A DNA stretch of 64,000 bases from Convolutriloba macropyga. Its lineage: Eukaryota. The stretch is from positions 36,952,001 to 37,016,000 of the forward strand of contig NC_134480.1 in NCBI RefSeq assembly GCF_964194025.1. The letters are read 5' to 3'. The position numbers were made by a program, and so were the translations under genes. Of this stretch, positions 1 to 42,729 are shown piece by piece; within the stretch, counting starts at the first letter, position 1; each line of letters starts with the position of its first letter. The notes under the pieces were generated by a model that was not told the origin of the DNA, did no database searches, and worked only from the letters and a program-made list of their open reading frames with translations.

Positions 1-1
1 A

Positions 2-640
2 AAACATGCCTCACTAAAGCACCCCCAGACCATTGGAGCAGTAGAACGATCTCACGGACCACTGAAGCGAATATTGAAGCTCAATACTGAGGAACAATGG
101 AAAGATTGGCATAAATATGTTCCATTAGCAACGTTCATTCATAATACTTCATACCATTCAGCAACAAATTGTTGTCCTTCAACTTTATTCCATGGCAGAG
201 AATCAATAAAACCCCTTGACATTAGGTTCTCCAGAAAAGTATTGGATGCAGTAGCAGTAAATTCTGATTTTGTCAATGAACTGCAAGACGCCATGGTGCA
301 TAAATTTGGAGAAAACAAAGAAAAACTGACGACTGCTTACTTGAAAAACAAAAAGTATTATGACCAAAAAGCCTCAGCAAAACCCATTCCGGAGAAATCA
401 TTCTGTTTACTTTTGAATCCTAAGCTACTAGAACAGTCAACAGTAATAGCTTCCCAAGTTCAGAAATGGCTACCGCTATATAAAGTGGAAAAAGCCCTTA
501 CTGATTCTAATTACATCATTCAAAGTAAAAAAGAATTATACACAATGTGTTCACCGCATCAGATTGAAGCCAATTAAGCCAAGTGAAACTCCTGAAGACC
601 TTAAAGTAATTAACCCTACAAAATTTCAACCTGATCCGTC
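2..640 (+). pseudogene. Gypsy integrase C-terminal half (catalytic Glu region + GPY/F-like module), frameshifted near 520
   Basis: Frame 2 reads KHASLKHPQTIGAVERSHGPLKRILK...WHKYVPLATFIHNTSYHSA..CPSTLFHGRE (HPQT.G.VER and W...L....F.HN...HS...P..L..GRE integrase motifs), then QKWLPLYKVEK..SNYII. After a frameshift it continues KVKKNYTQCVHRIRLKPIKP. Confidence 0.9.
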
Positions 641-744
641 TTCCAAAACTCGCTAGTGGCTATGATAAATCAGATTTTAATATCATTTTTGAGCTAATAT
701 GTCAAGTCTTCGACCCTCTACCCATAACCATCTACATCCACTAG
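641..744 (+). pseudogene. Macrodomain C-terminal remnant (copy 1; rest deleted)
   Basis: Reads LPKLASGYDKSDFNIIFELICQVFDPLPITIYIH*; joined to the integrase tail at a GTC microhomology (CTGATCCGTC|TTCCAAAACT). Confidence 0.85.
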
Positions 745-2510
745 CATGTACAGACCCAGTGCAGTCTAGCAGTACCCTCTATTTGCCCCAAAAGCCCAAC
801 AAGCCTGAGTAACTTAGCCCTAAAGCCCAAAAATCACCCAAAATTCGGAAAATTTCGACATCAAATTCTAGTTATTTTGATATATCTCAAGAAATACTTG
901 TCCAAACCTGGATTAATCTATTGTTCTGAAAAGCCCTCATCAAGTAGAAGCGATTCCAGCTATAATTGACCCCTCTCAACTCGTTCTAGGTACCAAAAAC
1001 TTAGCCCAAAGTTGACCCTTCCAAAAATCCTAGGTTCACCTCAGAAAAACAGTCATAAAATTGTGAAAAATGCCCCGATCATTCCAAATGTTTGCGCTGC
1101 AGCATTTTTTAAGCCGGGGAACCGACATGCAAATTTTGAAGCGATTTGAAGAACTTTAAAAATTGAGTGACGCTTGAGCCCCTGAATTTTGACACTTTTC
1201 GAATCCGCACGAATTCGATCATAATTCCTACAAAAAACCTCCAATTGACCTTTTTTATAGCCCTAGACCATCCTACTGCTCACGTTAGACGTCCCAGTAC
1301 CCAACAATTCCGTCAAAAATCAATAAAAGTTGAGTTATGACAAAAATACTGAACCCTACCAAAGTGCGTTAAAATTGATTAAAATGTAGTGTAAATTATA
1401 TCCCAAAAATATGCCAAAAACTGTTCCAACTGCCTCCAGCAGCTACTCCCAGCAGCCACCCGCATGGTACAACCTCAAACAACCATAAAAACCCAATATT
1501 GCTAAGTATATGTTGACAAATGACGAAAAAATGAAAATTGCGCTTCTGCTTCAATTCACTGCTTCAAAAATTTTGTAATTTTATTTCCCACCTGACCCGA
1601 TTAAAGCAACCTATACCCCCTACAATTCTAGTGCAACCCTCCACTAGCCTTGTAGTACCATAAAACCAGTCCTAGCTCATCCCAGTATCAGCCATGAAGA
1701 CTTAAACCCAAATAAGCTCTGAAATTGCAACAATTTTGTCAGAAAAATTCAGTTTTTTCCCACTAGAGTCTAAATTATTAACTTCTGACAGCAATTAATT
1801 ATACCATCAGCACCGCATATATATCTCTCAGAATATGCACTCCCAGTCCCCTAGTGCCAATACAAGCTGAGAAAAGACTGCCAAAGTAACGAAAATCACA
1901 AAAAATTTAGTGTTTTTTCTGGAAAAATTGATCAAAAATGCATTTTAATACCCGAATATGCCCAGTTTTATTGTTTACTCAGTTAGCCCTACTCATGAGC
2001 AGTCAAACCATAGTTATTTCAATAATTTTGAACAAGTTTTTCATAACCTCATAGCCAATAACCTATCCCCTATCTGAGCCTTTTCAAAAAACCCAGGTTC
2101 ACTGCAGCAAAAACGTTATAACTCGTGAAAAAATACTCAAAACCGCCCCTGACGACCTTGAAGTAATTAACCCTACGAACTTTCAACCTGATCCGTCGAG
2201 AAGACAACACATGGGACCGGATTTGTTTGATAAACATATCCCGGAACTGATAAATGAACATGAAAAGGAAACCCATCAATCAAAAAGAGTGAAACCAGAT
2301 CCAGTTAAAGTGACCATAAATGTCCCCCTAGGTTGACCATTAGCAGGACCAGTAGCAGCAGCACCTCCAGCAGCACCACTGGCCCCACCAAGGGTAATAG
2401 CACCAGCCGTTAGACCACGAACAGCTCCAGTACATCTTACAACAAACCCTTACCTAACCAACCAAGTTAGAAGATCAGGCAGTCCTAGACCGAAAAATGC
2501 ACGTGCCAGA

Positions 2511-3329
2511 TTGGAACAAGAAGAAAAACGTGAAGCAATAAAAGCATCAGCACAAGCATCAAAACAATCAAATACACCAACTAGAGAGACAAAATTAGAT
2601 CAAGTTAGAGCTAGTATAGCCAAATATTCAGGAAAAAAGCCCAGCAGCTCAGCAAACAGACCAGTAACCAGATCTCAAACGAAAAACACTTCACCAGGCT
2701 CTTCAAACCAAAACTTAAATCATTTTAGTCAAGAAATAAATGCAACATATCTAAGTTCACCAACAGATATCTTATACTCTCCACACTCTTTTGCAAACTG
2801 TATATCAGCAGACCTTGCAATGGCAAAGGGGTTAGCCAGACAAGTCAAAAGTTGGTACCCAGCAGCCCCAAGTGCAATCAGACTTAGATATCCACCAGAT
2901 ATTGGCTCAGTTTTAATCTACTTTGACCCCATTTCCGAACGTTATATCTTCAGTTTAGTCACCAAAGTTAGGTACTACCACAAACCCACATACGAATCTG
3001 TATTAGCAAGTCTCTATGAATTGAGAGAAATAGTAATAGATGCAGGAATATCACACTTAAGTCTTCCAAAACTCGCTAGTGGCTATGATAAATCAGATTT
3101 TAATATCATTTTTGAGCTAATATGTCAAGTCTTCGACCCACTAGCATGTACAGACCCAGTGCAGTCTAGCAGTACCCTCTATTTGCCCCAAAAGCCCAAC
3201 AAGCCTGAGCAACTTAGCCCTAAAGCCCAAAAATCACCCAAAATTCGGAAAATTTCGACATCAAATACTAGTTATTTTGATATATCTCAAGAAATACTTG
3301 TCCAAACCTGGATTAATCTATTGTTCTGA
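2511..3329 (+). CDS. Pol C-terminal tail with TARG1/OARD1 (Poa1p-like) macrodomain, copy 2; last strand replaced through a 23-bp deletion; TGA upstream at 2334-2336
   Basis: FANCISADLAMAKGLA, RYIFSLVTKVRYYHKPTYESV and GISHLSLPKLASGYDK align by eye to TARG1 [37 protein letters not shown] and GVTDLSMPRIGCGLDR. Confidence 0.85.
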   Translation: MEQEEKREAIKASAQASKQSNTPTRETKLDQVRASIAKYSGKKPSSSANRPVTRSQTKNTSPGSSNQNLNHFSQEINATYLSSPTDILYSPHSFANCISADLAMAKGLARQVKSWYPAAPSAIRLRYPPDIGSVLIYFDPISERYIFSLVTKVRYYHKPTYESVLASLYELREIVIDAGISHLSLPKLASGYDKSDFNIIFELICQVFDPLACTDPVQSSSTLYLPQKPNKPEQLSPKAQKSPKIRKISTSNTSYFDISQEILVQTWINLLF

Positions 3330-4600
3330 AAAGCCCTCATCCAGTAGAAGCGATTCCAGTTATAATTGACGCCTCTCGAGCCGTTCTAGGTACCAAAAAC
3401 TTAGCCCAAAATTGACCCTTCCAAAAATACTAAAGTCACCACAGTCATAAAATTGTGAAAAATGCCCCGATCATTCCAAATTTTTGCGCTGCAGCATTTT
3501 TCAAGCCGAGGAATCGACATGCAGATTTTGAAGCGATTTGAAGAACTTTAAAAATTGAGTGACGCTGGAGCCCCTGAATTTTGACACTTCGAATCCGCAC
3601 GAATTCGATCATAACTCCTACAAAAAACCTCCAATTGACCTATTTTATAGCCCTAGACCATCCTACTGCTCACGCTTGACGTCCCAGTACCCAAAAATTC
3701 CGTCAAAAATCAATAAAAGTTGAGTTATGACAAAAATACTGAACCCTAACAAGTGCGTTAAAATTGATTAAAATGTAGTGTAAATTATACCCCAAAAATA
3801 TGCCAAAAACTGTTCCAACTGCCTCCAGCAGCTACTCCCAGCAGCCACCCGCATGGTACAACGTCAAACAACCATAAAAATCCAATGTTGCCAAGTATAT
3901 GTTGAAAAATGACGAAAAAATGAAAATTGCGCTTCTGCTTCAATTCACTGCTTCAAAAATTTTATCATTTTATTTCCCACCTGACCCGATTAAAGCAACC
4001 TATACCCCCTACAACCCTAGTGCAACCCTCCACTAGCCTTGTAGTACCATAAAAACCAGTTCTAGCTCATCCCAGTATCAGCCATGAAGACTTAAACCCA
4101 AATAAGCTCTGAAATTGCCACAATTTTGTCAGAAAAATTCAGTTTTTTCCCACTAGAGTCTAAATTATTAACTTCTGACAGCAATTAATTATACCATCAG
4201 CACCGCATATATATCTCTCAGAATATGCACTCCCAGTCCCCTAGTGCCAATACAAGCTGAGAAAAGACTGCCAAAGTAACGAAAATCACAAAAAATTTAG
4301 TGTTTTTTCTGGAAAAATTGATCAAAAATGCATTTTAATACCCGAATATGCCCAGTTTTATTGTTTACTCAGTTAGCCCTACTCATGAGCAGTCAAACCA
4401 TAGTTATTTCAATAATTTTGAACAAGTTTTTCATAACCTCATAGCCAATAACCTATCCCCTATTTGAGCCTTTTCAAAAAACCCAGGTTCACTGCAGCAA
4501 AAACGTTATAACTCGTGAAAAAATACTCAAAACCGCCCCTGACGACCTTGAAGTAATTAACCCTACGAACTGTCAACCTGATCCGTCGAGAAGACAACAC

Positions 4601-5718
4601 ATGGGACCGGATTTGTTTGATAAACATATCCCGGAACTGATAAATGAACAGGAAAAGGAAACCCATCAATCAAAAACAGTGAAACCAGATCCAGTTAAAG
4701 TGACCATAAATGTCCCCCTAGGTGGACCATTAGCAGGACCAGTAGAAGCAGCACCTCCAGCAGCACCACTGCCCCCACCAAGGGTAATAGCACCAGCCGT
4801 TAGACCACGAACAGCTCCAGTACATCTTACAACAAACCCTTACCTAACCGACCAAGTTTGAAAATCAGGCAGTCCTAGACCGAAAAATGCACGTGCCAGA
4901 TTGGAACAAGAAGAAAAACGTGATGCAAAAAAAGCATCAGCACAAGCATCAAAACAATCAAATACACCAACTAGAGAGACAAAATTAGATCAATTTAGAG
5001 CTAGTATAGCCAAATATTCAGGAAAAAAGCCCAGCAGTTCAGCAAACAGACCAGTAACCAGATCTCAAACGAAAAACTCTTCACCAGGCTCTTCAAACCA
5101 AAACTTAAATCATTTTAGTCAAGAAATAAATGCAACATATCTAAGTTCACCAACAGATATCTTATACTCTCCACACTCTTTTGCAAACTGTATATCAGCA
5201 GACCTTGCAATGGCAAAGGGATTAGCCAGACAAGTCAAAAGTTGGTACCCAGCAGCCCCAAGTGCAATCAGACTTAGATATCCACCAGATATTGGCTCAG
5301 TTTTAATCTACTTTGACCCCATTTCCGAACGTTATATCTTCAGTTTAGTCACCAAAGTTAGGTACTACCACAAACCCACATACGAATCTGTATTAGCAAG
5401 TCTCTATGAATTGAGAGAAATAGTAATAGATGCAGGAATATAATACTTAAGTCTTCCAAAACTCGCTAGTGGCTATGATAAATCAGATTTTAATATCATT
5501 TTTGAGCTAATATGTCAAGTCTTCGACCCACTAGCATGTACAGACCCAGTGCAGTCTAGCAGTACCCTCTATTTGCCCCAAAAGCCCAACAAGCCTGAGC
5601 AACTTAGCCCTAAAGCCCAAAAATCACCCAAAATTCGGAAAATTTCGACATCAAATACTAGTTATTTTGATATATCTCAAGAAATACTTGTCCAAACCTG
5701 GATTAATCTATCGTTCTG
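4601..5718 (+). pseudogene. Pol tail + TARG1-like macrodomain, copy 3 (stops at 4859-4861 and 5441-5443)
   Basis: ORFs 4601..4861 and 4901..5443 are in the same frame and match copy 2; a TCA>TAA change truncates the macrodomain. Confidence 0.85.
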
Positions 5719-6999
5719 AAAAGCCCTCATCCAGTAGAAGCGATTCCAGCTATAATTGACCCCTCTCGACCCGTTCTAGGTACCAAAAACTTAGCCCAAA
5801 GTTGACCCTTCCAAAAATCCTAGGATCACCTCAGAAAAACAGTAATAAAATTGTGAAAAATGCCCCGATCATTCCAAATGTTTGCGCTGCAGCATTTTTC
5901 AAGCCGAGGAACCGACATGCAAATTTTGAAGCGATTTTAAGAACTTTAAAAATTGAGTGACGCTTGAGCCCCTGAATTTTGACACTTTTCGAATCCGCAC
6001 GAATTCGATCATAACTCCTACAAAAAACCTCCAATTGACCTATTTTATAGCCCTAGACCATCCTACTGCTCACGCTTGACGTCCCAGTACCCAAAAATTC
6101 CGTCAAAAATCAATAAAAGTTGAGTTATGACAAAAATACAACCCTAACAAAGTGCGTTAAAATTGATTAAAATGTAGTGTAAATTATACCCCAAAAATAT
6201 GCCAAAAACTGTTCCAACTGCCTCCAGCAGCTACTCCCAGCAGCCACCCGCATGGTACAACGTCAAACAACCATAAAAACCCAATGTTGCCAAGTATATG
6301 TTGAAAAATGACGAAAAAATGAAAATTGCGCTTCTGCTTCAATTCACTGCTTCAAAAATTTTGTCATTTTATTTCCCACCTGACCCGATTAAAGCAACCT
6401 ATACCCCCTACAACCCTAGTGCAACCCTCCACTAGCCTTGTAGTACCATAATAACCAGTCCTAGCTCATCCCAGTATCAGCCATGAAGACTTAAACCCAA
6501 ATAAGCTCTGAAATTGCCACAATTTTGTCAGAAAAATTCAGTTTTTTCCCACTAGAGTCTAAATTATTAACTTCTGACAGCAATTAATTATACCATCAGC
6601 ACCGCATATATATCTCTCAGAATATGCACTCCCAATCCCCTAGTGCCAATACAAGCTGAGAAAAGACTGCCAAAGTAACGAAAATCACAAAAAATTTAGT
6701 GTTTTTTCTGGAAAAAGTGATCAAAAATGCATTTTAATACCCGAATATGCCCAGTTTTATTGTTTACTCAGTTAGCCCTACTCAAGAGCAGTCAAACCAT
6801 AGTTATTTCAATAATTTTGAACTAGTTTTTCATAACCTCATAGCCAATAACCTATCCCCTATCTGAGCCTTTTCAAAAAACCCAGGTTCACTGCAGCAAA
6901 AACGTTATTACTCGTGAAAAAATACTCAAAACTGCCCCTGAAGACCTTTAAGTAATTAACCCTACCAACTGTCAACCTGATCCGTCGAGAAGACAACAC

Positions 7000-8391
7000 A
7001 TGGGACCGGATTTGTTTGATAAACATATCCCGGAACTGATAAATGGACAAGAAAAGGAAACCCATCAATCAAAAACAGTGAAACCAGATCCAGTTAAAGT
7101 GATCATAAATGTCCCCCTAGATGGACCATTAGCAGGACCAGTAGAAGCAGCACCTCCAGCAGCACCACTGGCCCCACCAAGGGTAATAGCACCAGCCGTT
7201 AGACCACGAACAGCTCCAGTACATCTTCCAGTATTTGATTCTTCAAGCTCAGATGAAGCAATTCCTAATTTATTTGAAGAAAATAGTAGTTCAGATGAAA
7301 ACCTAGCTGACCTGAATCTAGATGCTGAACAAATAGCAAGAATACTGGTTGATCCACTAATTGCTGATGAAATTCGACAGCAAGAACCAGAAAATCCTGT
7401 TCCTCTAGTATCATCCCAATCAGATGATGAAATGTTTTCACCACTCCAGCAACCTCAGCCAGCAATAGTACCATTAGATGTTGAGTCCCCTCCAGAAACA
7501 CGAGAAGAACAATTTGCGTTAACTGACAGAAAAATAAGAGCGCGACCTTATAATCCTAAACGAAAACCAGAGAAAAGTGCATTCAAATCACTAGACTACC
7601 AACAGCGAAAAAATGTACGCGGATTTAAATGCGATAGAGAATTAATGTTGCATGAAGAAGATAGAACAAACCTTTACCTAACCAACCAAGTTAGAAGATC
7701 AGGCAGTCCTAGACCGAAAAACGCACGTGCCAGATTGGAGCAAGAAGAAAAACGTGAAGCAATAAAAGCATCAGCACAAGCATCAAAACAATCAAATACA
7801 CCAACTAGAGAGACAAAATTAGATCAAGTTAGAGCTAGTATAGCCAAATATTCAGGAAAAAAGCCCAGCAGTTCAGCAAACAGACCAGTAACCAGATCTC
7901 AAACAAAAAACTCTTCACCAGGCTCTTCAAACCAAAACTTAAATCATTTTAGTCAAGAAATAAATGCAACATATCTAAGTTCACCAACAGATATCTTATA
8001 CTCTCCACACTATTTTGCAAACTGTATATCAGCAGACCTTGCAATGGCAAAGGGATTAGCCAGACAAGTCAAAAGTTGGTACCCAGCAGCCCCAAGTGCA
8101 ATCAGACTTAGATATCCACCAGATATTGGCTCAGTTTTAATCTACTTTGACCCCATTTCCGAACGTTATATCTTCAGTTTAGTCACCAAAGTTAGGTACT
8201 ACCACAAACCCACATACGAATCTGTATAAGCATGTCTCTATGAATTAAGGGAAATAGTAATAGATGCAGGAATATCACACTTAAGTCTTCCAAAACTCGC
8301 TAGTGGCTACGATAAATTAGATTTTAATATCATTTTTGAGCTAATATGTCAAGTCTTCGACCCTCTACCCATAACCATCTACATCCACTAG
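7000..8391 (+). pseudogene. Most complete pol tail (Pro-rich, acidic and basic linker) + TARG1-like macrodomain, copy 4; one premature TAA at 8227-8229
   Basis: 409-aa ORF; the same frame continues past the TAA to ...LPKLASGYDKLDFNIIFELICQVFDPLPITIYIH* (TAG 8389-8391). Confidence 0.88.
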
Positions 8392-8689
8392 CTTGTACAG
8401 ACCCAGTGCAGTCTAGCAGTACCCTCTATTTGCCCCAAAAGCCCAACAAGCCTGAGCAACTTAGCCCTAAAGCCCAAAAATCACCCAAAATTCGGAAAAT
8501 TTCGACATCAAATACTAGTTATTTTGATATATCTCAAGAAATACTTGTCCAAACCTGGATTAATCTATTGTTCTGAAAAGCCCTCATCCAGTAGAAGCGA
8601 TTCCAGTTATAATTGACGCCTCTCGAGCCGTTCTAGGTACCAAAAACTTAGCCCAAAATTGACCCTTCCAAAAATACTAAAGTCACCAC

Positions 8690-11300
8690 AGTCATAAAAT
8701 TGTGAAAAATGCCCCGATCATTCCAAATTTTTGCGCTGCAGCATTTTTCAAGCCGAGGAATCGACATGCAGATTTTGAAGCGATTTGAAGAACTTTAAAA
8801 ATTGAGTGACGCTGGAGCCCCTGAATTTTGACACTTCGAATCCGCACGAATTCGATCATAACTCCTACAAAAAACCTCCAATTGACCTATTTTATAGCCC
8901 TAGACCATCCTACTGCTCACGCTTGACGTCCCAGTACCCAAAAAACCCGTCAAAAATTGATAAAAGTTGAGTTATGACAAAAATACTGAACCCTACCAAA
9001 GTGCGTTAAAATTGATTAAAATAGTGTAAATTATACCCCAAAAATATGTCAAAAACTGTTCCAACTGCCTCCAGCAGCTACTCCCAGCAGCCACCCGCAT
9101 GGTACAACCTCAAACAACCATAAAAACCCAATATTGCCAAGTATATGTTGAAAAATGACGAAAAAATGAAAATTGCGCTTCTGCTTCAATTCACTGCTTC
9201 AAAAGTTTTGTCATTTTATTTCCCACCTGACCCGATTAAAGCAACCTATACTCCCTACAACCCTAGTGCAACACCCCACTAGCCTTTTAGTGCCATGAAA
9301 ACCAGTCCTAGCTCATCCCAGTATCAGCCATGAAGACTTAAACCCAAATAAGCTCTGAAATTGCCACATTTTTGTCAGAAAAAATTCAGTTATTTCCCAC
9401 TAGAGTCTAAATTATTAACTTCTGACAGCAATTAATTATACCATCAGCACCCCCGCATACATATCCCTTAGAATATGCACTGCCAGTCCCCTAGTGCCAA
9501 TACAAGCTGAGAAAAGACTGCCAAAGTAACGAAAATCACAAAAAATTTAGTGTAATTTCTGGAAAAAGTGATCAAAAATGCATCTTAATACCCGAATATG
9601 CCCAGTTTTATTGTTTACTCAGTTAGCCCTACTCTTGAACAGTCCAACCATAGTTATTTCAAAAATTTTGAACAAGGTTTTCATAGCCTCATAGCCAATA
9701 ACCTATCCCCTATCTGAGCCTTTTCAAAAAAACCCAGGTTCACTGCAGCAAAAACGTTATAACTCGTGAAAAAATAGTCAAAACCACCCAAATTTTTGCG
9801 CTGCAGGGGTTTTTGAGAAAGCGATTCACCAATTTTGAGCTCAATCGAAGCATTTTAAAAATTGAGTGACGCTGGGGCTCTCAATTTTTGAGACTTTTTG
9901 AAAATTTACGTACATGTTCATAAATTTCGAAATGTTGATCGAAAACCCAATATTATTAGCTTAAAACATTTGTATGCTCAAGTTCTACATGCCCATATCA
10001 AAAATTTTGAAAATTGTTAAGTAAAATGTTGAAATAATAGCAAAAAACTGAAGCCTACCAAACTCTTCTCAAATTAGTCAAAATAGAGCCCGATTTAGAC
10101 CAGAAAAATAGTACTAAATATCCGATTTATGAGCCCAAATCCAATATTCAGTCTCCCTAGAAGTTGTCCAAGCCTAATAAACCCATACAATCTCACAGAA
10201 ATGCATAAATGTTGAAAAAAGTGAAAAAACCGAAATCTTCACATATTTGACCAAATTTAGTCCAAAATTATAAAGTGAAAAACTCCACATAATAAAGTCA
10301 AATCATGCACCAAACTGCACCAATAGCTGCCACCAACATAGTACTCACTAGTATGACTCTCAGTTACCGTGAAAATTCAATCATTTCCAACCTATGTCAA
10401 CTTATGCACCAAACATGACGCACCTCAAGTAAAAATCTAGCAAGTTCAAAAAAAAACTGGACCAAAACACATGTTAATCACTCCAAAAGCTACCAAAATG
10501 CTACCTCTGATAGCCACTGATATCAGTACTAACAGTTAGCACCTGATTTTGGCCACTAGAGAATCACCAGACCGACACATGTCTCGAAGAAGCTCAAATA
10601 TTAGAAAAATCATGTCTGAAAATTAGCATTTTGGACGTAAAAACCAATGTTCTGACCCGATAAATAGCTTCAGATCCTATAATTCAGTAATATACATTAG
10701 TACCAAGCATAGACAGTACCATTTTAACCATTTAATGCCGATAATGTATGAAGAGTGATGATTTATTCAGACCGAAATTTCATGATTCAAAAATAGCCAG
10801 GTTCAGATCACGAAAACAGTCATAACTTTGCGAAAAATGCCCAAATTGCGCCAAGTTTTTTGCGCTGCAGCGTTTTTTGAGCTACTAAAGCGATCTGCCA
10901 ATTTTGAGCCCGATTGGAGCAATTTAAAAATTGAGTGACGCTGGAGCCCTCAAATTTTCGCATTTTTCGTTTTCTCAAACATGAATAAAAAAGTTGACCA
11001 AAAAGTGCCCAAAAACCTGAATTTATAGCATAGTAATAACCCACCGATGTCTACCGAGTGGGCCAAGCCAAAACATTTGCCCAAAGTGCAATAAAAATTG
11101 AAAAATTCACATATATGCAACACCAGTCTTGATGTGGAAAAATGACCTAATTCACGAAAAAATTACATGTAAAAATTAGTACCAAATCAGTTCAAATTAC
11201 ACACAAATGCTGCTAATAACGAGGACAAGTACCTAGAACCATTAGAACCAGTTTATGACCAGTATTTCACAAGTAAAGTTAAGTTAATGCTCAAGAATGA
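8690..11300. repeat. Old, diverged ~1.065-kb tandem units in the pol-env spacer with a conserved ~150-bp core
   Basis: GCGCTGCAG at 8733, 9798 and 10862 (spacing 1065, 1064); ATTGAGTGACGCTGG at 8801, 9861 and 10930. Flanks are recognisably homologous but diverged. Confidence 0.85.
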
Positions 11301-11516
11301 AAAAAGCCATTATGTCATCAATTTTGCACACTTACAAATATATCATTATAAAGTCACACACTGCAATTAAAAAGTTACCATATGCTCACACTCACTATAG
11401 CTTCTAGGCCCAACAGTCAAAACCAATTATCCAAGCTACAATTGTCAAATAACAAGTAAAAACATACCTATAAATGAAACTAATCTACTTGATGAATACA
11501 ATTGCACAGACACTAG

Positions 11517-12996
11517 TCAATCCTCATCGGCGCTATCCTCAGCCACGCTACCACCACTAGTACTCTGACCGGCCTGACCCCTTGTCCTAGTAGAACGAGT
11601 CAAGTTTCGCTCAGCATCATCCAACCTGTTTTAATGTAATTACAATGAATAAAATGCCTTAAAATTACACGAAACCTCGATAAATTCTGCATAAAAACAA
11701 CTAAATACTCACTTCGGAAAGTCCACAATTGGCTCACCATGGTATCGATACTCATTGTCGATGAATTTCCCGATGCACTGGATCAGTACAGCTGGAGCGG
11801 TGGCCCTAGCATTGACAGAATGCCGATAACATACCCAGCCGCCCCCCATTTCCTGATTATACTGCCAATAGATATTGACATTGCATCCGAGGAAATATGC
11901 CATACCGACAAACTAAACAGTAAAACCTCAGATTATGCCTACATACACATGCACGTATCAGAATTACCACGCATTGAAGGAAAATTTACCCAGAACTCGG
12001 CCAACGACCCATTGTCTTCACTCGCATTAATCTCATACTCTGACACAAAGTACCCTAACTGGTCCTCCACAAGCTCAGAGAACCCAGGCGAACGCATCTT
12101 GGCCACAATAGCCAAGCGTAGAGCACGAACATTATGCTTGGGAACTTTCTTGTCTGCAATAAATTGGTTAAATGTGAATTAGAATTCTAAATCTACTGAA
12201 AATTACGATAAAATATAACAAATACCTGACTTCCGACCAGTTAACGTGTAGTACAGAGCACTGAGAGCACACAGACTACCAACTGCGGCCCTCACACCAG
12301 CCGCACCAAGCCACTTTGGAGTTTTAAATGACACTACGTCCACATACTCAGCGTAAATGTCATTGTAGAACTCGTATCCCAATTCGGCACACACGTTTGC
12401 GCGAAGATTCGCACGGAAGAAAGTACACTGCACCTCTTTGCCGTGCATCTTCTTCACGAAACATGGCACACATTCACGATTGGCTCTAAATATCAAGCAA
12501 AAACCACTTCACAAGTAATAATATACACATCAAACTAAAGAAAAATGAATAAAAATATACATAATTATTATACACATATGCAATTACCTTTCAACAGCAG
12601 CCTGCAATCTCCCATCGAGCGTGGAAAGAAGAACCCAGCAGTTTTCAGGCGATCGACTTGTGATCTCACACGAGTAAAGTGCTTTGCAGAAGCACTGAAC
12701 CCGACATGAAGTGCAGCCAATTCCTGAGACACCATCTGCTGAGTAGGAATTTCCTTCTCCTGAACTTGCATTTCGCTGCCCACCTTCACTTCCACCTTGT
12801 ACAGTAAAATTTCCCGATTTACGGCAAATTCAGACGTCCCCACATTCTTTGATCTTAGAACCATATGTTCTGCTTTGTCCCGATAAGCTCGTCGTTCATC
12901 AGCAGTCCGAACAAATGGTGGATACACCCATTCAGATTGAGATAACGACTTGCTTCGCAAGAAAGCCACAAAATGTTCATACTGGGCAACATCCAT
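11517..12996 (-). CDS. Five-exon antisense gene (~379 aa): integrase-type N-terminal/HHCC zinc-finger module + OTU-like cysteine-protease domain + low-complexity tail
   Basis: Exons 12996-12588, 12485(or 12483)-12226, 12153-11990, 11912-11713, 11625-11517, separated by GT-AG introns of ~102, 72, 77 and 87 nt. Phases join at introns 2-4. Intron 1 needs the second AG of TTTAGAG or a 1-nt deletion in exon 1. Motifs: LHVGFSASAKH..FFFP..CVPC; GSLCALSALYYTLTG..HNVRALRLAIVAKM..MAYFLGCNVNIY..WVCY..YHGEPIV. Confidence 0.75.
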
Positions 12997-13460
12997 GATT
13001 AACAGTGATTATCTGAAAATTCAAAAATCGAGTCAAACTAGTTATTAAGCAAGCAAAGCGTTAAAGTGTTAAGTCAAAAATGAACAATCACAGGAATGAA
13101 AACGCACAAATAGAACAAATTATGCAATAAATGCCAAGAACGTTTAATTACCATGCCACAACGATCACTAATTGTTAATGACACATCCCGTAAAACACAC
13201 AACACCGTTCTGAACACACAATTACACCCTTCACTACATTTACTTATTCACTACGCCTCACTAATTCTTCCTTTTATCCCCTACTTACGTCCTTATTCTC
13301 TCACAAAACAAGTTTGATATATACTAATTACAATGATATTAGTAGCACCTTATTAAATATTAATAGCACCAAGTATTTTAGTCAGTATATTCAGGAAAGC
13401 TAATCAGAACTACAACTACAAGTCAGTCAATAAATAATATAAATAAATATAAATAACTAG

Positions 13461-13847
13461 TTATACTGCCGTCTCCTCCATTTCAACTCCTCCCTCATCT
13501 TCTTGATCTACAATCTCTTCCCTCTCCCTCCTCCTTCCTGCACATCTTCCCCTCCTTCTCCTTCTCCACATCCCAACAATCCCGAATAATATCAATAATA
13601 ATATCCATACTAATAATAATATTGATTCCCCATCCCAACCATCTCCTCCATCTTCTATACAATTGACTATTATCGTATTATTATGAATATTGAACTCTGG
13701 GTGAACTAAACGAGACCAGTGAACCCAGTTCCTTGACACATACCTGGTCCCGTTGTTTTAGCATCCCAGAGTGATATTATTCGGCCCGACAGTAATATTA
13801 AAGCACATAATTAGTATCAGAATAATCTGAAAAACTCGGAAAAACAT
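13461..13847 (-). pseudogene. Small antisense type-I membrane glycoprotein ORF (128 codons, one in-frame TAA at codon 30)
   Basis: ATG at 13847: MFFRVFQIILILIMCFNITVG (signal-like), sequons NIT/NIT/NGT/NNT, TM ILLLVWILLLILFGIVGMW, RRRRR stop-transfer, acidic tail ending ETAV*. Confidence 0.65.
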
Positions 13848-14188
13848 GTAAAGACTGCATAATTCGACCCCCCAACCACTATCCCCATCATCACACACCC
13901 ACCATTCAACCACATAACCATGTTTCAACATGTTTAAACACCATATTTAGTAGTAATATCAATAAACACACACACACACAAACACACTTGATATAAAAGT
14001 AGAGTACACCTGAAACAAATAAACACCACATAAACAAGTGCCAAATTGAAGAAATTAGAACTAGAAGCCTGAGTACATTAAACAAATGAGCAAATAAACA
14101 CCGGAAAGCCAAATAGAATCCAATTGAACATCCTGAAGAGCCACATCAGCAGAAGATTGTCCTGAAACATAGTTGTTAATATTGAAAC

Positions 14189-16483
14189 ACGAAAACGTTA
14201 CTTACAATTGTGTTGAATCTCGTACTTTTCGGCCCCATTTTTGAGACGCCGATCAACACAGAAGAAGCACTGGCTCAAGGAATAATCTTTCACAAGGAAC
14301 GAAAGATTTTAATCACTGAGAAGTTCATCAACGCGGAATTTTTAGTACCGTTTCCTCGTTACAATTTCACGATACGACGACAAGTAGAGGCTCTACTTCT
14401 TGACCTCTCAAAGAAATGGATAACACAGTCAGAATTCTGCAACATGACTTACAGTACCACGTATCGGAATCAGACAGATGCCTTCAATGTTGACTGGCTT
14501 TACTCGAAGATCCTCAAGGAAACCATCGAAGCCGAACTTGAAGTTTCTAAACTACGCAATGAGACCGAAAAACTCCTCACCAGAGTCAAAGAGGACCCCC
14601 GAAACAGACAGAAAAGAGCCGCCCCGCTTGCGATAGCAGCCGTAGTCGCTGAAATTGGACTCTTTGGTCCAGGAATAGCAATGAGCAGCGGAGGATGCGG
14701 TGGAATCACAGGAATTTTTGGCTCATGCCAACGAACGTCTCAAAATGCCGAAAACATCGATAGATTAGCAAATAGTTTTAATAGCCTCAACGACTATGTC
14801 ATGGAAATCGGCGCACAAACCGATGAGAAATTCTTTCTAGTTGCTGACGAACTTGCAAAGGTTTATAAAGTTGAAAACGAAATGCAAGAAAACCAAAACA
14901 CAAACTGGAAACTAGTTGAGGAACAATTCGCAATTGTCGACCACAATCTGAATGCAATAGCAACCTGCATGGAAATTCAATCAACACAACAACAACTGAA
15001 CTTTAACTTTGACACAGCAGCATCATTACTTCTTACCCTCTATGCAGATATTAAAAGTTATCGAGCAGCCTTATACTCTTTCCGAATTAATGTTATAAAT
15101 GCAATTCCTACTCTACTTGACAAACGCCTTCCAATCTCTTTAGTACCGCGAAAATCTTTGATAAAGATCCTGGATGCAGTCCATGATAGCCAAAAGAACG
15201 CCCCAGATCGTCCCACTTTGGCAATACCCATGACTGACATACTTTCGTACTACGATGCGAAATTAGTACAAGAGATTTCGACAGTTGAGGACGGACTTTT
15301 ACTGACACTAGCCATTCCCCTGGCCTCTAGCCAGTCGGTGTTTGAAGTTTATCGTGCAAATGTAATCCCTATGCCCCAGAAGGACTCTGTAGACGCCTTA
15401 CAATGGGTGATAGAGGGAGAGTACTTAGCAATCTCTGAAGGACAGATGGAAACTACAGTACTGACGAAAGCCCAGTATGACAACTGTCTTGGATCGCAAC
15501 GATACCGAATATGTCATGAGACAATGGAAACCCACCTTGGATTCTCCTCGTGCCTAGCAACCCTCAAGTTTCATCATGCCATTACAGCATTGAAAGTATG
15601 TGACACAGAGAAGGTTGTGTTACCCAACCCAGAACGAGCACAGAACCTTGGATACGGAATTTGGCTCTTAACATCAGCTTCAAGTGATTTTACCCTTAGT
15701 GAGATTGGTACGGACGAGAATGGCCAACAGACCAACATTCCTCATAAAGGTTGTAACATCTGTTTAATCGCATTAAAATGTGAACATACAATGTTCAGTG
15801 ACCACATTAAAATTCGAGCCGATTTACAAAGTTGTCAGTATCTTCCCGCGAAGCGAATCAATGTAAAATTGCCAGATCCACTAGAACATTTAATTGACTC
15901 AGTTCCAAACATAAACGAACTTCCGAAGTACGAATCAAGCAATGAAGCAAATCTAGACTTATTGAAGGAAGTTAAAACAGAATTCATCTACTCCAATCGA
16001 AAGTTATCAACAGAATCACTAGATGACATAGCAAAGCCCATTACCACTGAAATGAAATCATTTAAGCCCGCACTAATTGACAAACTTGAATCTTACGTTC
16101 CTATCAAGCTTTCTCTCTCGCTAACAATTATTGTCGTTATCGGAAATCTAGCTCTACATATTCTCTTCATGTACTTATACCATAAAGTAGCTTTTTTACG
16201 ACGAATGGTACCCAATTTCATGAAGCTTAACGGAACCAATGTACCACTAAATCCAGTAGTTTCCGTCCCCAAACATCTGAAAGCAGAAGTAGTTACAACT
16301 CTAGCCAAACAACTCAAGCAACCACCAACAGTCATCTCTCCAGAAGAACTTGGAACCCTCAAACGACAACGACGAAATTCCATGCCTGCAACTTCTACCA
16401 TGTCATTCAACACCATGGACCGATTTAACACAGACGATGAACTGGACAACCAAGCTCAATCTCGAGAGGAGAGTATGCTTTAA
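14189..16483 (+). CDS. env: Envelope / class I viral fusion glycoprotein (errantivirus env / baculovirus F-like)
   Basis: Uninterrupted frame of ~760 codons. Hydrophobic N-terminus KTLLTIVLNLVLFGPIF, furin site RQKR followed by hydrophobic peptide AAPLAIAAVVAEIGLFGPGIAM, heptad region, Cys-rich ectodomain, TM LSLSLTIIVVIGNLALHILFMYLY and cytoplasmic tail. No ATG ahead of the signal peptide (ACG at 14189, GTG at 14210). Confidence 0.9.
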   Translation, partial: TKTLLTIVLNLVLFGPIFETPINTEEALAQGIIFHKERKILITEKFINAEFLVPFPRYNFTIRRQVEALLLDLSKKWITQSEFCNMTYSTTYRNQTDAFNVDWLYSKILKETIEAELEVSKLRNETEKLLTRVKEDPRNRQKRAAPLAIAAVVAEIGLFGPGIAMSSGGCGGITGIFGSCQRTSQNAENIDRLANSFNSLNDYVMEIGAQTDEKFFLVADELAKVYKVENEMQENQNTNWKLVEEQFAIVDHNLNAIATCMEIQSTQQQLNFNFDTAASLLLTLYADIKSYRAALYSFRINVINAIPTLLDKRLPISLVPRKSLIKILDAVHDSQKNAPDRPTLAIPMTDILSYYDAKLVQEISTVEDGLLLTLAIPLASSQSVFEVYRANVIPMPQKDSVDALQWVIEGEYLAISEGQMETTVLTKAQYDNCLGSQRYRICHETMETHLGFSSCLATLKFHHAITALKVCDTEKVVLPNPERAQNLGYGIWLLTSASSDFTLSEIGTDENGQQTNIPHKGCNICLIALKCEHTMFSDHIKIRADLQSCQYLPAKRINVKLPDPLEHLIDSVPNINELPKYESSNEANLDLLKEVKTEFIYSNRKLSTESLDDIAKPITTEMKSFKPALIDKLESYVPIKLSLSLTIIVVIGNLALHILFMYLYHKVAFLRRMVPNFMKLNGTNVPLNPVVSVPKHLKAEVVTTLAKQLKQPPTVISPEELGTLKRQRRNSMPATSTMSFNTMDRFNTDDELDNQAQSREESML

Positions 16484-17070
16484 ATTCACGAAAGTCTTAA
16501 ATAATTCAACAAGTATTAATCCTTTAACTGATTAAGTATCCCTTTATCCATTAAGTTTTAATCATATGTGCCTTAAATCATCAAACCAGTATTTCAATCC
16601 CAGAAACTAACCAGTGCTTTCAACCACTTATTCAGTCAGTTCAAATGTTTTACCCTATTCAAAGTTAAGAGCTTTTATTCAGTGAAATAACCATGATTAA
16701 TTTCAGTGCTAATCTTAACGTGTTCTCTAAACCCTAACTCTATCTTATGTTCTCACTCTTTATTCAGCATTTGCGCATTCTCGACTCTCAAATGTTCCTT
16801 CAAAGCCTTTAATCTTGTCTTAACCTTCTCCTTTTTAATCTTTATCTCAATTTGTCTTAACTTAAACTTTCTTCCTCTTAACTTCTTTAATTGTCTTTAA
16901 CTTAAATGCTTTCGTTCCAAACACTTTTCTAAGAAAACATAAATTGGGTGGCTCCAACAAAAACATATGTTTACTCTTATATTCGTGCAGATTATATGTT
17001 TCATAGAAAAATTGTAAAACCCCAGTTTCTTCTTAAAATTTTCATGGAAAATTTTCATAAAGTCCGGTAG

Positions 17071-17696
17071 TGTCACCCCCCTATTTCGTCCCTCATAGTT
17101 ACGTGATGATATTCCTTAAAATATCCATAATTAAGTGCTTTATATTAATTAATATTCATTTAGTTTCACGGCCATATATATATCCAGTATTTCCATCTAG
17201 GCCTGATACCCCAAAATTTGTTTATGTTTACGAAAAACAACCGCAGAGTGACAGTTTTACTAGCAAACATATCAAGTGCCTAAATGCCTCAATGTTTACT
17301 TTTTTGAGTTTCTTGAAGATAAATTCGCATAATTAGTAAACAACTTTATGAGAGATTATATACTTGGTGAAGTAATTATTCTGATAAAGAAGGTGCTAAT
17401 ATGGAACTTGTATATGTACTTAACAAACATCAAGAGACGTACAAAAGCCGGAAATTGCCCAACTTGTAGATCAGTAAATATTTGCGAAGGTCCAATACAA
17501 CTCAAGGCACAGTCCTGCGGAACTTACGATCAGCAGAACACCGGAGAAACAGCCTGACTACCAGTTGCTAATAAAACTCAGCAAAAACTCAAACTCCTTA
17601 TTCTATCATTGAAAACTTTGGCTTTAATTTCTGATTTATTAAATAAAGATTGAACTGGAAATTCTTCCTAAAATTAATAAGTTAAAACAGGCTACA
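17071..17696 (+). repeat. Probable 3' LTR of the Gypsy/env element
   Basis: Starts TGTCAC ~590 bp after the env stop; TATA-like run at ~17175; AATAAA at ~17570 and ~17642; candidate ...ACA ends at 17688 or 17696. The partner LTR is not in the window and the PPT is weak. Confidence 0.4.
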
Positions 17697-20104
17697 TTAG
17701 AGTTATAGTATGGCTAAATAAAGCTCTAAAACCCAGGGCAACTAGTGGATGTATCGCGCATCCGAACCGCTCAATAAAAGGCTATTACTAGCTAAGTTTA
17801 TTCAAAATATATCCGCTATAAATCGCACTGTGAAACACCAAAATAAGTCCTTGAAAAATGGCAATTAATCACATTATTTACTGCTATTATTAACCTCAGA
17901 AAACACCATGAGGAACACCTAGAAGTCAGTGCGTAACAGAGCGTTTATGGGTTTAAATTATTTCATGTAAGCCTCCAATGCTTACTTGAGATAATTCGAA
18001 CCTGGACTGAATTTACTCTGATTATTTAGAAAAGTTGATATCACATTTTGATTCGAATTTTATAATGTAATTTCTGTATATAACCAAAAAGGTAGAACAT
18101 ACTTGTAGTAAAATAAAACAATATGTATTTTTTTCATGAATCATAGAAATTATATATACATTGTTTTGATTTAGTTCATGTTAATTTGGATTGATACTTT
18201 CTTAACAGATTAATTACTATGTTTTACTATGTTTCAATTAATTTTACTACTAAAAATAAAATCAACTTTTAAAAACTCACATCTTACTGTTTAATAACGG
18301 ATTTTTTCCAGCTGAAGAATCAGAAACTGCTGATAGATGCAAAAGACAAGTAATGCGATAGTACTAGGGACTTAAAAATAGACAACTCTTGTCTTCAGAA
18401 GAATTCGGTTCTTGGTCAGATAAATTAATCGAATATTCGAAGGCATATTTTTTTCATCTGAATATCGAAGTCATCTGGTTATCTGGTTATCATTTTTTTC
18501 ATCTGGTTATCATTTTGAATACCAAATTATCTACGGGATATCTGTGAGCGTAACAGATTTCCTTCGCATTTAAAAGAAACTACTTCATGATTGCTTCTTG
18601 AAAAATGATTAAACTCTGTTTGTCAGAACTCATAGTTAACTAAATTTTTCTCCATACACTTTTCAGTTCCTTCCAAAATTTTCTCATTACATATATTGAA
18701 TCAGCTCTTCTGTTCAGTTGAAAAAGTCGTTCACGTATAGGCTAAAAACTAGGCTCTAAAACGGTTGCATGAGATACACCAATATTAAACATTACATTTC
18801 TGGAAAACCTACCATTTTGCTTTACTCTCTGTTCTCCGTTTGCAAAAAAAAATTGAAAAAATTTGAAAAATCGTAGGATTCAATCGTTTTAAGAAAATTT
18901 ATGAGAAATCGAGTCGCATTCTTTGCTAAAACCTAACAAAAAACTGTAGTGTTTTTGTTTTCTTCCAAATTGTCTGTTATAGTTTCAACTAGTTGTAAAA
19001 GTGATTCTGTTGCTGACTTCTTTTTCGGAAAACCCAACTAGGTTGTTGTTAATGATTCGATTTCCTTCTCTGTGTCCTGTAACTTGGTTCAAGAGCAGGC
19101 GCTCAAAAACATTGGCTAGCATTGGGGTGTTCTAATACACGGAGGGAGAGCTTTCCGTTGTGGATGCCCGGCGGAAAGTTTGCTGTGTTTTGCGCTATCG
19201 CTTTTGCCTTACCCAGTGAAACGAAGCTTCAAAAAACCTTACTGAGATGTTGCTCAGATTCTTTGGTGTGAAAATGTCAAAAGATGGGTAAAAACCTGCG
19301 CAATTCCTCCACAAATTTCAGGAACGTACCTTCTTGACCACAATATTATCAAGCCGTGTCACAATATTATCAAGACGTAGCTGATAAATATCTGGCTAAG
19401 GCATCCCAGTGCTTGGAAGAATCTCAAGATTATGAATATTTACAAAGTTTTGTTTCACCGAGTGCAAATTGTCTCCAGGTTTGAATCAAGTCAAATGAGG
19501 CTTAAATAAAATTATTCTGAATAGTCAAATGAGATCTTGAAATGTAGCACTGCAAGATATTGATGTCAACAAAGCATGTTATCAAAATTATCGAGCAATT
19601 TTTTGAACGATAATTTGCCATGTATATCCAGTCGATGCAGTTAGCGTGCACCCACTGAGCTGGGACGAACCAACCTTAATTTATCAGGCTTTTTACTAAT
19701 ACACTATTTTTGCAGTGATAATTTTGAGACATTTTTATGCTGCTCAAAAGGATAGTAACTTGCGAGTCTTAACTCTCCGTTAAATTGTTTGTCCAGCCTC
19801 TATGTTGAGTTTGGTGGAGGTTTCTTTGTTTAGTCGGTTAAAGGAATCATGATCATGTAATTTGTACAACATTTGTAAAACTTCAAATATCCGTAAATAC
19901 AAGGCCTGAAGAAGAATTTATTTAGCAAAATTATGCATTATCATATATGACAGGGCAAAGATTTCACTGCAAGATGTTGCAAGATCATAACTAATCTTGC
20001 AATTTTTTCCTGTGAAATCTCGCAAGATCTTGCAAGGTGAACATCGTGGTGCAGTCACCAGTTTTCACCTCTTACGGTTTTTGTTTAGTTGCAATGTTAT
20101 GTAG

Positions 20105-35488: not shown

Positions 35489-36040
35489 TTTGGTCCGCCG
35501 ACAAATAGGTTAAGGATAAAATAGTCAAATCATTAGGCACCAAAAGCATTAACTCTCTCAAAAAATTCAGCAAAAAATCTAAAAGGGGAAACTTAAAGGG
35601 GAAGTTAAAAGCGGACCCCCCACTAGATAACACATCCCCCCTCATGTTATACAAGTTGATTAACTTGTATAACAAGGTTGATTAACCTAATTCTGAGACC
35701 CGGTAAAGTTATCTAGTGGGAGAACTATATCTCAAGGGTTACAAAACTTTTTGTGAAACTTCGGGGCAAACAATCTCTTTCTCAGTTCTCGCGGAGAACT
35801 AGAAATTTTTAGTTTAGGTTTGCTCCCCCGAAGTAATAGCACTAAGTTCGCGCGCAAAAATTGGTCGCATTTTTTGAAGGGGGATTAAGTGAAACCCGAT
35901 TTCCCATCTTTTGCGTTCTTTTAGTGTGTTTTTAGCTTTCAGCACAGCAAAATCCACGAAAAAGACAAACGAAACTAATACGAATAAAGACCAGCATCAA
36001 AGACACAAAAAAACGCCCTCAAAGGCAACAGCAAGTCAAA

Positions 36041-37240
36041 ATGTCCAATCTTGAAATGCAGAAACAGTCGCGGGGATCACACCGCAGCGTTGCTACAAGG
36101 TTTAACAATGAGGCTGAAAATATCCTGTCAAAAGATCTAGACACCATTTCAGAAGCGGACATCAACAGACTAAATCAGGTAGCGACACTTCTCACCCGAA
36201 AGCAGAATTTTCTGGTAACTTTGAACCAAGAACTTCAACAGAACTTGACGGAGGCGGAAGCACTGGACAATGACATTCTGGAGTCCGAGGAAGTTGATGA
36301 AAAGTTGACACAGAACATCGATGCAATCAAACGCTTCACGAAACGTTTTGAGGGACCTTCAACAGCAGCAGATACTTCAACGCCATCTATTTCAACGCTC
36401 TCCGAGGAACTCAGCCAACATCAAGTTACCAAAACTCAATCTGCCAGTTTTTTCGGGTAATTATATGGAATGGACTTCGTTCTTTGATTTGTTCAAAGGA
36501 GCAGTCATCGACAACAGTTCTCTTCAAGGAAGTCAGAAGTTGCAGTATCTGAAAGCATCTGTAAAAGGTGATGCCGCCAAACTGCTTGCCTCGATACCAG
36601 TTACCGATCACAATTTCGACATTGCTATGAATACTCTGATAAACAGATACGAGAACAAGAGGATCATCATTCGCACACACCTGCATTCAATTGTTTCATA
36701 TCGATCACTGACAACCGATAATGCCAGAAACTTAAGAAATTTAATTGAAGCAATGGACGAACATCGACTTGCCTTGCAGAATTTGGGAGAACCAGTCAAT
36801 AGTCAAGACATCTTTTTTGTTTACTTGATCAGTGAGAAGCTGCCTACAGAGACAAGAAAACAATGGGAGCTGTCTTCAAAAGGCAAAGAACCTCAAAGGT
36901 ATGCAGAGCTCAGGTTTTTCTTAGAAGAACGCGCACAAGCACTCGAGGCAGCTGCGCCAAATGGAGTAGGAGCGACAAAAACTCAAATGAACGGGAACCA
37001 ACGACATTTACACACACATTTGGCGACTTCCGAGCAACAATGCGAATGTTGTGCAGAAACGCACAAAATTTTCAAATGCGGAAAGTTCAAGAAACTTTCA
37101 GTAAGGGAACGTGCAGAGCTGATAAAGGATAAAGGTTAGAAAACTCTGTTTCAATTGTCTGCGACCGGGACACAGATCAGAAGATTGTGATGGATCGAAA
37201 TGCAAGCAATGTGGTAGAAAACATCATACTCTTCTTCATC
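36041..37240 (+). pseudogene. gag: BEL/Pao gag (DUF1759-type capsid region + three Cys/His knuckles), frameshifted
   Basis: KLPKLNLPVFSGNYMEWTSFFDLF, QKLQYLKASVKGDA, CECCAETHKIFKC, CFNCLRPGHRSEDC, CKQCGRKHHTLLH; frame breaks near 36400 and 37135. Confidence 0.9.
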
Positions 37241-37383
37241 GTGAAAACATTCACAACAAAAACACCAATCAGCAAACAACTAGCGGAACAAACAGCACTC
37301 AAGTAAATGACAAACAGAAGAAGAACGCTATAACAACAACAGCAATTGCAAAAGCTAAGGATGAAAACAAGTTCACAGGAGCT

Positions 37384-42509: not shown

Positions 42510-42729
42510 TGTTACGATTTACAATAGCCTTTGATACAATGACCTTCAATGCAATCCGAGCAAGATGAGGAAAACAATGATAATTAACCACGTGCTGAAA
42601 CCAAATATTCATAATTTCAAACGATATTATCACATTCACTTGGTCTTTTCGAGCTTGAGATTCTTAAGCATAAAGCGTTATAATAAAGCATTTCTAAGCA
42701 AGTAATTCAATTAATGTTGCACCGCAACA
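42510..42729 (+). repeat. BEL/Pao 3' LTR (220 bp)
   Basis: Direct repeat of 35292-35488, preceded by AAGGAGGCCGGTA. Confidence 0.95.

Follow-up and report, generated by a model that had tools for sequence, protein, structure and literature searches.

Do some animal retroelements carry enzymes of their own against the marks by which a host silences or destroys them? The question is raised by a 64,000-nucleotide stretch of the genome of Convolutriloba macropyga (NCBI RefSeq assembly GCF_964194025.1, contig NC_134480.1, positions 36,952,001 to 37,016,000 of the forward strand; this whole stretch is called the window), which opens with the 3' part of an env-bearing Ty3/gypsy element. The original prediction, made from the sequence alone, had described a Gypsy retroelement with an env gene and three candidate counter-defence genes, for a macrodomain, an OTU-like protease and a small membrane protein. 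We found that these genes are real, selected and heritable parts of a mobile clade. In many copies and 16 families, the layout was long terminal repeat (LTR), gag, pol ending in the macrodomain, spacer, an antisense enzyme gene and an antisense gene for a small transmembrane (TM) protein, env, and LTR. As judged from sequence, the chances are about even that the accessory genes, which are under selection, serve to remove marks by which the host would silence or destroy the element.

Organization of the element

Addition of two upstream stretches to the window gave the full element of 25,039 bases, the LTRs of which are 96.7% identical, with a 5-bp duplication on both flanks. Gag, protease (PR), reverse transcriptase (RT), RNase H and the start of the integrase all lie upstream of window base 1. 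The features of the element are as follows.

C13:36944900-36945764 (7100-6236 bases before base 1, outside the window, about 7 kb upstream): 5' LTR
2..577, plus strand: C-terminal part of the integrase frame
638..9789, plus strand: internal tandem multiplication with a period of about 2.4 kb, comprising Pol linker, macrodomain and the first third of the spacer
2721..3152, plus strand: TARG1/OARD1-like macrodomain; this piece retains the equivalents of K84 and D125
634-741 (tail only), 5111-5542 and 7945-8388 (each of these two with a stop), plus strand: other macrodomain pieces
8400..11500: non-coding spacer (about 3 kb), containing three repeats of about 180 nt that have diverged (8688-8836, 9723-9902 and 10786-10969)
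12588..12996, minus strand: exon 1 of the OTU-like gene, with the ATG and the two invariant His of a putative H2C2 zinc-binding domain; frameshift near the exon end in the window copy
12226..12485, minus strand: exon 2, CxxC and OTU Cys box
11990..12153, minus strand: exon 3, OTU helical part
11713..11912, minus strand: exon 4, OTU His box
11517..11625, minus strand: exon 5, low-complexity tail with the stop, under weak constraint (dN/dS, the ratio of nonsynonymous to synonymous divergence, 0.3-1.9)
13461..13808, minus strand: open reading frame (ORF) for a small single-pass membrane protein (Cys-Cys-x-Asn-Gly ectodomain, TM helix, basic tail), cut short in the window copy by a premature stop at 13758-13760
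14186..16483, plus strand: env, an F-type class I fusion glycoprotein with a furin-like RQKR, a fusion-peptide-like segment and a TM segment
17071..17938, plus strand: 3' LTR (TG...CA); the 5-bp target-site duplication comes next, at 17939-17943

A Pfam run on an intact copy gave the order PR-RT-RNase H-integrase, with an H2C2 integrase, and a conserved motif starting with TGG, a candidate tRNA primer-binding site, adjoined the 5' LTR in each of the 14 elements whose LTR end was defined. The LTR pair, this order and the F-fold env agree with a Gypsy retroelement that carries env. The predicted series of integrase, macrodomain, spacer, antisense zinc-finger/OTU-like gene, antisense TM ORF, env and LTR was found with all its parts in that order, but not as a single collinear unit because of the multiplication at 638-9789. 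Likewise, an LTR is present where an LTR-like end had been placed, but that end, 17696, falls inside it.

The repeats at 638-9789 are 94.7-96.7% identical by self-BLAST. This multiplication is the window copy's own: 4 of the 6 other copies compared lack it and 2 have one with different bounds. In the window copy, moreover, RT contains two stops, breaks interrupt the frame between integrase and macrodomain, antisense exon 1 is frameshifted near its end, the TM ORF has the stop mentioned above and env starts without an initiator Met. A strong A/C-rich strand bias (A 0.36, C 0.24, G 0.15) extends over window positions 1-17938 and stops at the LTR.

The accessory genes are shared by the copies of a recently amplified family

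From 40 matches in the 1.18-Gb genome, we picked six copies for comparison with the window element; all seven were fetched in full. Gag-pol, spacer, antisense block and env lay within one LTR pair in 7/7 copies, each with TG...CA LTRs and a 5-bp target-site duplication, and the six others were collinear with the window element. The macrodomain, antisense genes and env had been expected to co-occur in this way, and the antisense block (11.5-13.9 kb in the window), being internal in every copy, is not a one-off nested insertion. LTR identity was 95.7-99.8%, and unexpanded copies were about 18.7 kb long.

A protein search of the genome with exon 1, in which 150 matches were scored from 189 candidates, gave about 75 near-full-length matches with an identity of at least 85% (a count by eye within the 150); the remainder were subfamilies at 55-77% and, below these, fragments. 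The family is recently amplified. Inside one old copy (C11:44712541-44723984, L039-L041), with LTRs 84% identical and the TM ORF missing, the antisense block and env are present in triplicate with a period of 5.5 kb, the units being 98-99% identical.

The antisense gene is predicted to encode an OTU fold

Alignment of the copies predicted four introns with GT-AG ends (102, 72, 77 and 87 bases) in the longer antisense gene; copies free of interruptions would encode 381 residues. In comparisons of five copies whose exon lengths are intact, dN/dS was 0.20-0.36 in 9/10 pairs and 0.68 in the last, a pair of close older copies, while two shifted frames of the gene gave values of 0.9-1.8. In the most distant pairs dS was close to intron divergence (0.47 vs 0.47). 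The introns were positionally conserved between OTU-type families that are only about 20-30% identical. Four sequencing runs whose contigs behave as DNA, and which are therefore uninformative on expression, contained no joint at a predicted intron.

Pfam, run on single exons or on the intron-containing read-through, did not detect an OTU domain, nor did sequence searches of the PDB. A profile made from seven genes aligned with the Helitron-type OTU domains of the host with an hhalign probability of 96.3% (E 1.7e-9), and the alignment placed both the Cys box and the His box in register; control profiles (30 shuffled, the reversed and unrelated ones) reached at most 0.7%. The OTU Cys was kept in 7/7 genes and the His in 6/7, with Glu or Asn two residues past the His. 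An AlphaFold2 (AF2) model was built from a copy in which, by chance, the introns preserve the reading frame; two of them were left in (predicted local distance difference test score, pLDDT, 55). Its listed Foldseek rows were OTU proteases only, at E 0.03 or worse. With VIA, OTU-like chains made up the top 31 of 40 rows (best Z 9.0, root-mean-square deviation 3.2, 132 aligned), and the best neighbours included nairovirus OTUs (Z 8.4-9.0), tied with OTUD1/OTUD3. The profile alignment (hhalign 96.3%) and the VIA scores (Z up to 9.0) bear out the OTU-like identity; the gene is under purifying selection, and its product, as modelled, has an OTU fold and is a putative deubiquitinase.

When 1.84 billion proteins were searched with the profile, 83 matches were obtained, 76 of them shorter than 400 residues and mostly exon-sized relatives. 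Among the 20 scanned, 5 were Pfam OTUs (one with Pif1 helicase domains) and at least 6, long HYR-repeat proteins, were set aside as spurious. A word-seeded search for longer proteins homologous to exon 1 found none, which is weak evidence, and the ESM Atlas returned only leads under 0.9 for exon 1 and the TM protein.

The N-terminal part has an invariant H...H and CxxC, and it aligned weakly to integrase zinc-binding regions (hhalign E 0.002; controls at most 0.8%). An origin from Ginger1, in which YPYY/H2C2 is followed by a DDE core and then by OTU, was rejected because a 381-residue gene is too short for a DDE core. Two long host OTU frames that we examined turned out to be Helitrons. The His box of the host Helitrons is of the same type as that of the antisense gene, and on sequence grounds these transposons are a plausible donor class. 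Helitrons with RepHel frames of about 2500 codons and an N-terminal OTU domain (L108:2-6142, L109:5096-10000, L091-L106) formed clusters on C4 and, at 43.2-43.6 Mb, on C10.

Conserved TTTCAG acceptor-like sites were seen on the minus strand at 13010, 13830, 14010 and 14165, upstream of both antisense start codons and beyond, accompanied by a conserved donor-like site near 14205. Their sequence suggests alternative splicing or trans-splicing from a shared leader.

OTU and JmjC-like genes interchange in one slot

Genome searches with three env relatives gave at least 150 matches each, and 20 representatives were fetched, selected for long env frames and distinct scores. An antisense block lay between pol and env in 15 of these 20 families, and these 15 form one clade. 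The macrodomain was found in 14 of the 15 (in the one exception, another element has displaced pol). The remaining five families, the outgroups, had neither block nor macrodomain and lacked all cassette parts (5/5).

The slot was occupied by an OTU-type gene with introns at the same positions in 5 of the 15 families, and by a JmjC-like ORF, of which there are two subtypes, in 10; none of 36 elements scanned had both enzymes together. The nine best PDB hits of the JmjC-like ORF were PHF8/KDM7/PHF2 (best E 1.3e-6). The iron triad H-x-D/E...H was present in 9/9 aligned ORFs, and the proportion of nonsynonymous differences (pN) was 0.25-0.45, the synonymous one (pS) being saturated. A JmjC query gave 78 genome matches, and by eye 14 of the best 15 were opposite to an env match about 1.5 kb away. 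JmjC-like matches also form tandem arrays at C2:27097985-27109716 (about 11, just upstream of an env), C15:20724313-20728804 (about 5) and C11:25442104-25459490 (about 7-8).

Trees of pol and env were midpoint-rooted and comprised elements of this genome only, the family with the displaced pol being omitted from the pol tree. The cassette-bearing families clustered with a support of 99 (pol) and 92 (env). Both trees agreed on the main clades, which speaks against pol and env belonging to different elements. The OTU and JmjC types were interleaved at well-supported nodes, with at least 3 changes over 15 tips (shuffled mean 5.0), and the enzyme genes were probably swapped between families by recombination. 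Clean LTR pairs with a 5-bp duplication were found in 7 of the 15 representatives, most of them more than 99% identical. The co-occurrence in copies, the congruent pol and env clades and the purifying selection on macrodomain, OTU and TM genes support a complex endogenous retrovirus-like element, as had been supposed.

The macrodomain is the C-terminal end of Pol

The macrodomain matched human TARG1/C6orf130 with an E of 6.4e-13 (phmmer, PDB); no Pfam model matched the window copies. The original prediction listed it as a gene, but in copy C6:40.09 Mb it is the end of a 1928-codon open Pol frame, separated from the integrase core by about 360 low-complexity residues. This integrase-to-macrodomain frame was fully open in 1/7 copies and had a single stop in another. 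Comparison with four other copies gave dN/dS values of 0.055-0.25. The TARG1 match confirms the macrodomain identity, and the domain is under purifying selection.

The catalytic residues of TARG1 are K84 and D125 (PMC6397177). The window family has kept the pair, as have 4 of the 13 sister families aligned, which makes 5/14. The 9 others lacked the Asp, and in most of them the binding-loop motifs were gone. With the pattern TKx(30,35)Px[IL]GxGxD, the window family has the K and the D, one Gly being replaced. A word-seeded search for Pol-length proteins with this macrodomain found none (weak evidence).

The window copy has four tandem macrodomain pieces, produced by the internal multiplication, and the domain was multiplied in 3/7 copies. 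We considered that it might be multiplied specifically, as an 'accordion', and dropped this idea: in other copies tandem duplication has also involved pol, env and the antisense block, and some of these duplications arose long after insertion.

The TM protein and env

The antisense ORF for a small membrane protein was confirmed. Its dN/dS was 0.35-0.43 with dS above 1 (dN about 0.4), so that it is much more diverged than its neighbour genes, and a profile found it in 14/15 sister families. It occurs in two forms, with or without a signal peptide, which track the pol tree with one change. Two allelic types (13461-13808 and L020:7733-8038), about 50% identical, were mixed among subfamilies whose flanking genes are 75-90% identical; this pattern suggests exchange.

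Env has 765 open codons in the window copy. The AF2 model had a pLDDT of 70, and every listed Foldseek row was a paramyxovirus or pneumovirus F protein (best E 2.4e-7); the TM-scores by query were low (0.2-0.3), and the monomer model is partly of low confidence. A Baculo_F match (E 0.00095) was obtained with the env of a sister copy. Profile comparison with PDB sequences gave weak HA2 matches only (E at least 0.03), which we took as coiled-coil or fusion-peptide noise. There were 102 database relatives at 28-93% identity, nearly all in ENA assemblies.

The spacer

The spacer showed no codon periodicity and no Rfam match; hidden exons were rejected for lack of such periodicity. Its Jukes-Cantor distance was 0.13-0.17 as compared with a dS of about 0.4-0.5, that is about one third of the synonymous rate. 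A/T tracts had a 10-bp periodicity of 1.42 versus 0.98±0.10, above all 100 shuffles, and the periodicity was also found in pooled sister spacers. As a guess, the spacer may serve in DNA bending or nucleosome positioning.

Genomic surroundings

Exons of a dynein heavy-chain gene follow the element on the plus strand (window 20105-62600; DHC_N2 at 20105, 24282 and 29692), and the element may lie inside an intron of this gene. A disrupted BEL/Pao element (Peptidase_A17, RT) occupies 35936-42232 and includes, at 40381-40839, a tandem repeat of 87 bp within coding sequence. Beyond it, at about 42700-46500, lies an array of five copies of an 835-bp unit.

Discussion

KDM7 and PHF8 act on H3K9, H3K27 and H4K20 methyl marks. 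Because a KDM7/PHF8-like JmjC and an OTU interchange in one slot, their shared job would most simply be the removal of repressive chromatin marks, methyl-lysine or histone ubiquitin. Integrated copies would supply the transcripts of the antisense genes. Introns would outlast replication because the packaged RNA is the opposite strand, which is never spliced at those sites; the antisense orientation would let intron-containing genes persist, with their expression tied to integrated DNA, and the enzyme would act in the provirus-bearing cell, the OTU type possibly tethered through its N-terminal zinc-binding domain. The macrodomain, as part of Pol, would ride in the particle and act on ADP-ribose at or near integration, and the TM protein would work at the membrane with Env, in release, fusion control or a block to superinfection. 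With the enzyme genes exchanged among families, probably via recombination, we tentatively propose, at somewhat less than even confidence, that these are complex animal retrovirus-like elements of a previously undescribed clade, in which a modular antisense slot holds the anti-silencing gene. Each family would have its own histone-demethylase-like JmjC or its own deubiquitinase, plus an ADP-ribose eraser in Pol and a small membrane protein encoded beside env, and would reopen its own chromatin by removing methyl, ubiquitin and ADP-ribose marks.

Several points weigh against a role of the accessory genes in erasing host marks. The window copy itself is dead or defective. The OTU genes lack the Asp of D-G-x-C, the His box has changed in the window copy, and the zinc-binding assignment of the N-terminal part, which draws on an hhalign probability of 14%, is weak. 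As for the JmjC-like ORFs, Pfam JmjC/Cupin_8 stayed below the cut-off, a PHD finger was not found in them and the 2-oxoglutarate Lys is kept in 7/9; their product could be a hydroxylase of non-histone targets. Since the catalytic pair is kept in 5/14 families, the macrodomain is probably not a TARG1-type hydrolase in most of them. The changes of enzyme type along the trees could also have arisen by differential loss from an ancestor with both genes, though no remnant of this was seen.

Other explanations for the same genes were weighed against chromatin reopening. We hold it rather unlikely that they are replication helpers, with the macrodomain acting as an ADP-ribose reader that steers integration to PARylated chromatin (it occupies the chromodomain position of other gypsy elements), the OTU shielding Gag and Pol from proteasomal decay and the JmjC modifying element RNA or protein. 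The place of the macrodomain after the integrase in Pol, its retention though catalytically degenerate in most families, and the OTU domains of Ginger1 transposases and Helitrons, which are thought to aid transposition, fit such a role. Yet the integrase and the macrodomain are kept apart by the 360-residue linker, the ADP-ribose-binding loop motifs are also lost in several degenerate families, and two unrelated enzymes in one slot are hard to square with distinct housekeeping roles. Antagonism of innate immunity, in which macrodomain and OTU would strip ADP-ribose and ubiquitin from antiviral signalling proteins (compare coronavirus nsp3 and nairovirus L) and the TM protein would be a Vpu-like antagonist, appears unlikely. 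The nairovirus OTUs among the best structural neighbours of the OTU model, the F-type env, which makes an extracellular phase likely, and the fast divergence of the TM ORF, like that of arms-race or exchanged genes, speak in its favour. However, it leaves the replacement of OTU by JmjC in 10/15 sister families unexplained, and this replacement points more to chromatin. Moreover, the macrodomain is of the TARG1 type, whereas coronavirus Mac1 is of the MacroD type, and it is degenerate in 9/14 families; the sequence relatives of the OTU include Helitron OTUs rather than viral ones.

That the genes are neutral cargo, namely captured Helitron or host fragments or a nested insertion, is very improbable, even though the genome is rich in nested and in tandemly duplicated elements and holds OTU-bearing Helitrons as donors. 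It is contradicted by the dN/dS of 0.2-0.36, by the conservation of splice sites and intron positions between families in which synonymous sites are saturated, and by a position and orientation fixed in 16 families.

The following comparisons draw on parts of the cited articles. The closest likeness is with the F-type env Ty3/gypsy elements, which are widespread ('ancient errantiviruses', Chary and Hayashi, PMC13524379). These also have gag-pol-env between LTRs, the order PR-RT-RH-IN (RH, RNase H; IN, integrase), an env with the paramyxovirus/pneumovirus F fold and congruent pol and env trees; in the present elements, by contrast, a macrodomain ends Pol and 2-6 kb with antisense genes separate pol from env. 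The words macro, antisense, OTU, JmjC and accessory do not occur in the main text of that article, the first filter of which capped the pol-env gap at 1 kb and the total length at 10 kb, some phyla being given wider windows. Plant Retand/Tat elements (PMC11963269) share a long region from pol to the 3' LTR (2.9-6.6 kb), antisense ORFs and tandem repeats, but they lack env, their ORFs are mostly TRP28 and neither OTU nor JmjC is among the domains listed. An orchid Gypsy element with an AlkB m6A demethylase (PMC9289625) likewise has an extra enzyme, a 2-oxoglutarate dioxygenase, though of the AlkB type for RNA. Planarian Burro (PMC6431247) is a gypsy element with ubiquitin- and apoptosis-related domains and env homology, there as parts of a giant polyprotein. 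For neither of these two do the relevant passages report a swappable antisense slot, an OTU or a JmjC. A macrodomain in an env-bearing LTR retroelement is known from fish epsilon-like endogenous retroviruses (Basta et al. 2009, cited in PMC4977317), which are true retroviruses with the macrodomain in additional ORFs, not as a TARG1-like end of Pol. Transposon-borne OTUs occur in Helitrons and in Ginger1, which unites an H2C2 finger, introns and OTU (PMC2836005, PMC6431247). These are DNA transposons in which the OTU is fused to RepHel or to the DDE transposase, whereas here it is a free-standing antisense gene, lacking a DDE core, in an LTR element. There is also precedent, in the sections covered, for chromatin domains fused to transposons and, judging by titles, for the capture of DNMT and MBD; CERV of Cer1 is a further candidate precedent. 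Our full-text literature searches turned up neither an LTR retroelement that carries an OTU or JmjC gene nor a swappable antisense slot; these families may be recorded in Repbase, Dfam or GyDB, in subscription journals or in the supplements of PMC13524379.

Env-bearing gypsy elements are usually treated as simple gag-pol-env elements, whereas here a whole clade, made up of 16 families from a single genome, matches a complex retrovirus in its gene content. Its accessory genes are predicted to be spliced, lie antisense and are under selection, and in several families the LTRs are more than 99% identical. The layout suggests how surveys that limit the pol-env gap could overlook such elements. If the enzymes are active, these would be animal retroelements that directly, and in an assayable manner, encode erasers of host silencing marks, and the exchange of OTU and JmjC would show which host marks limit them.

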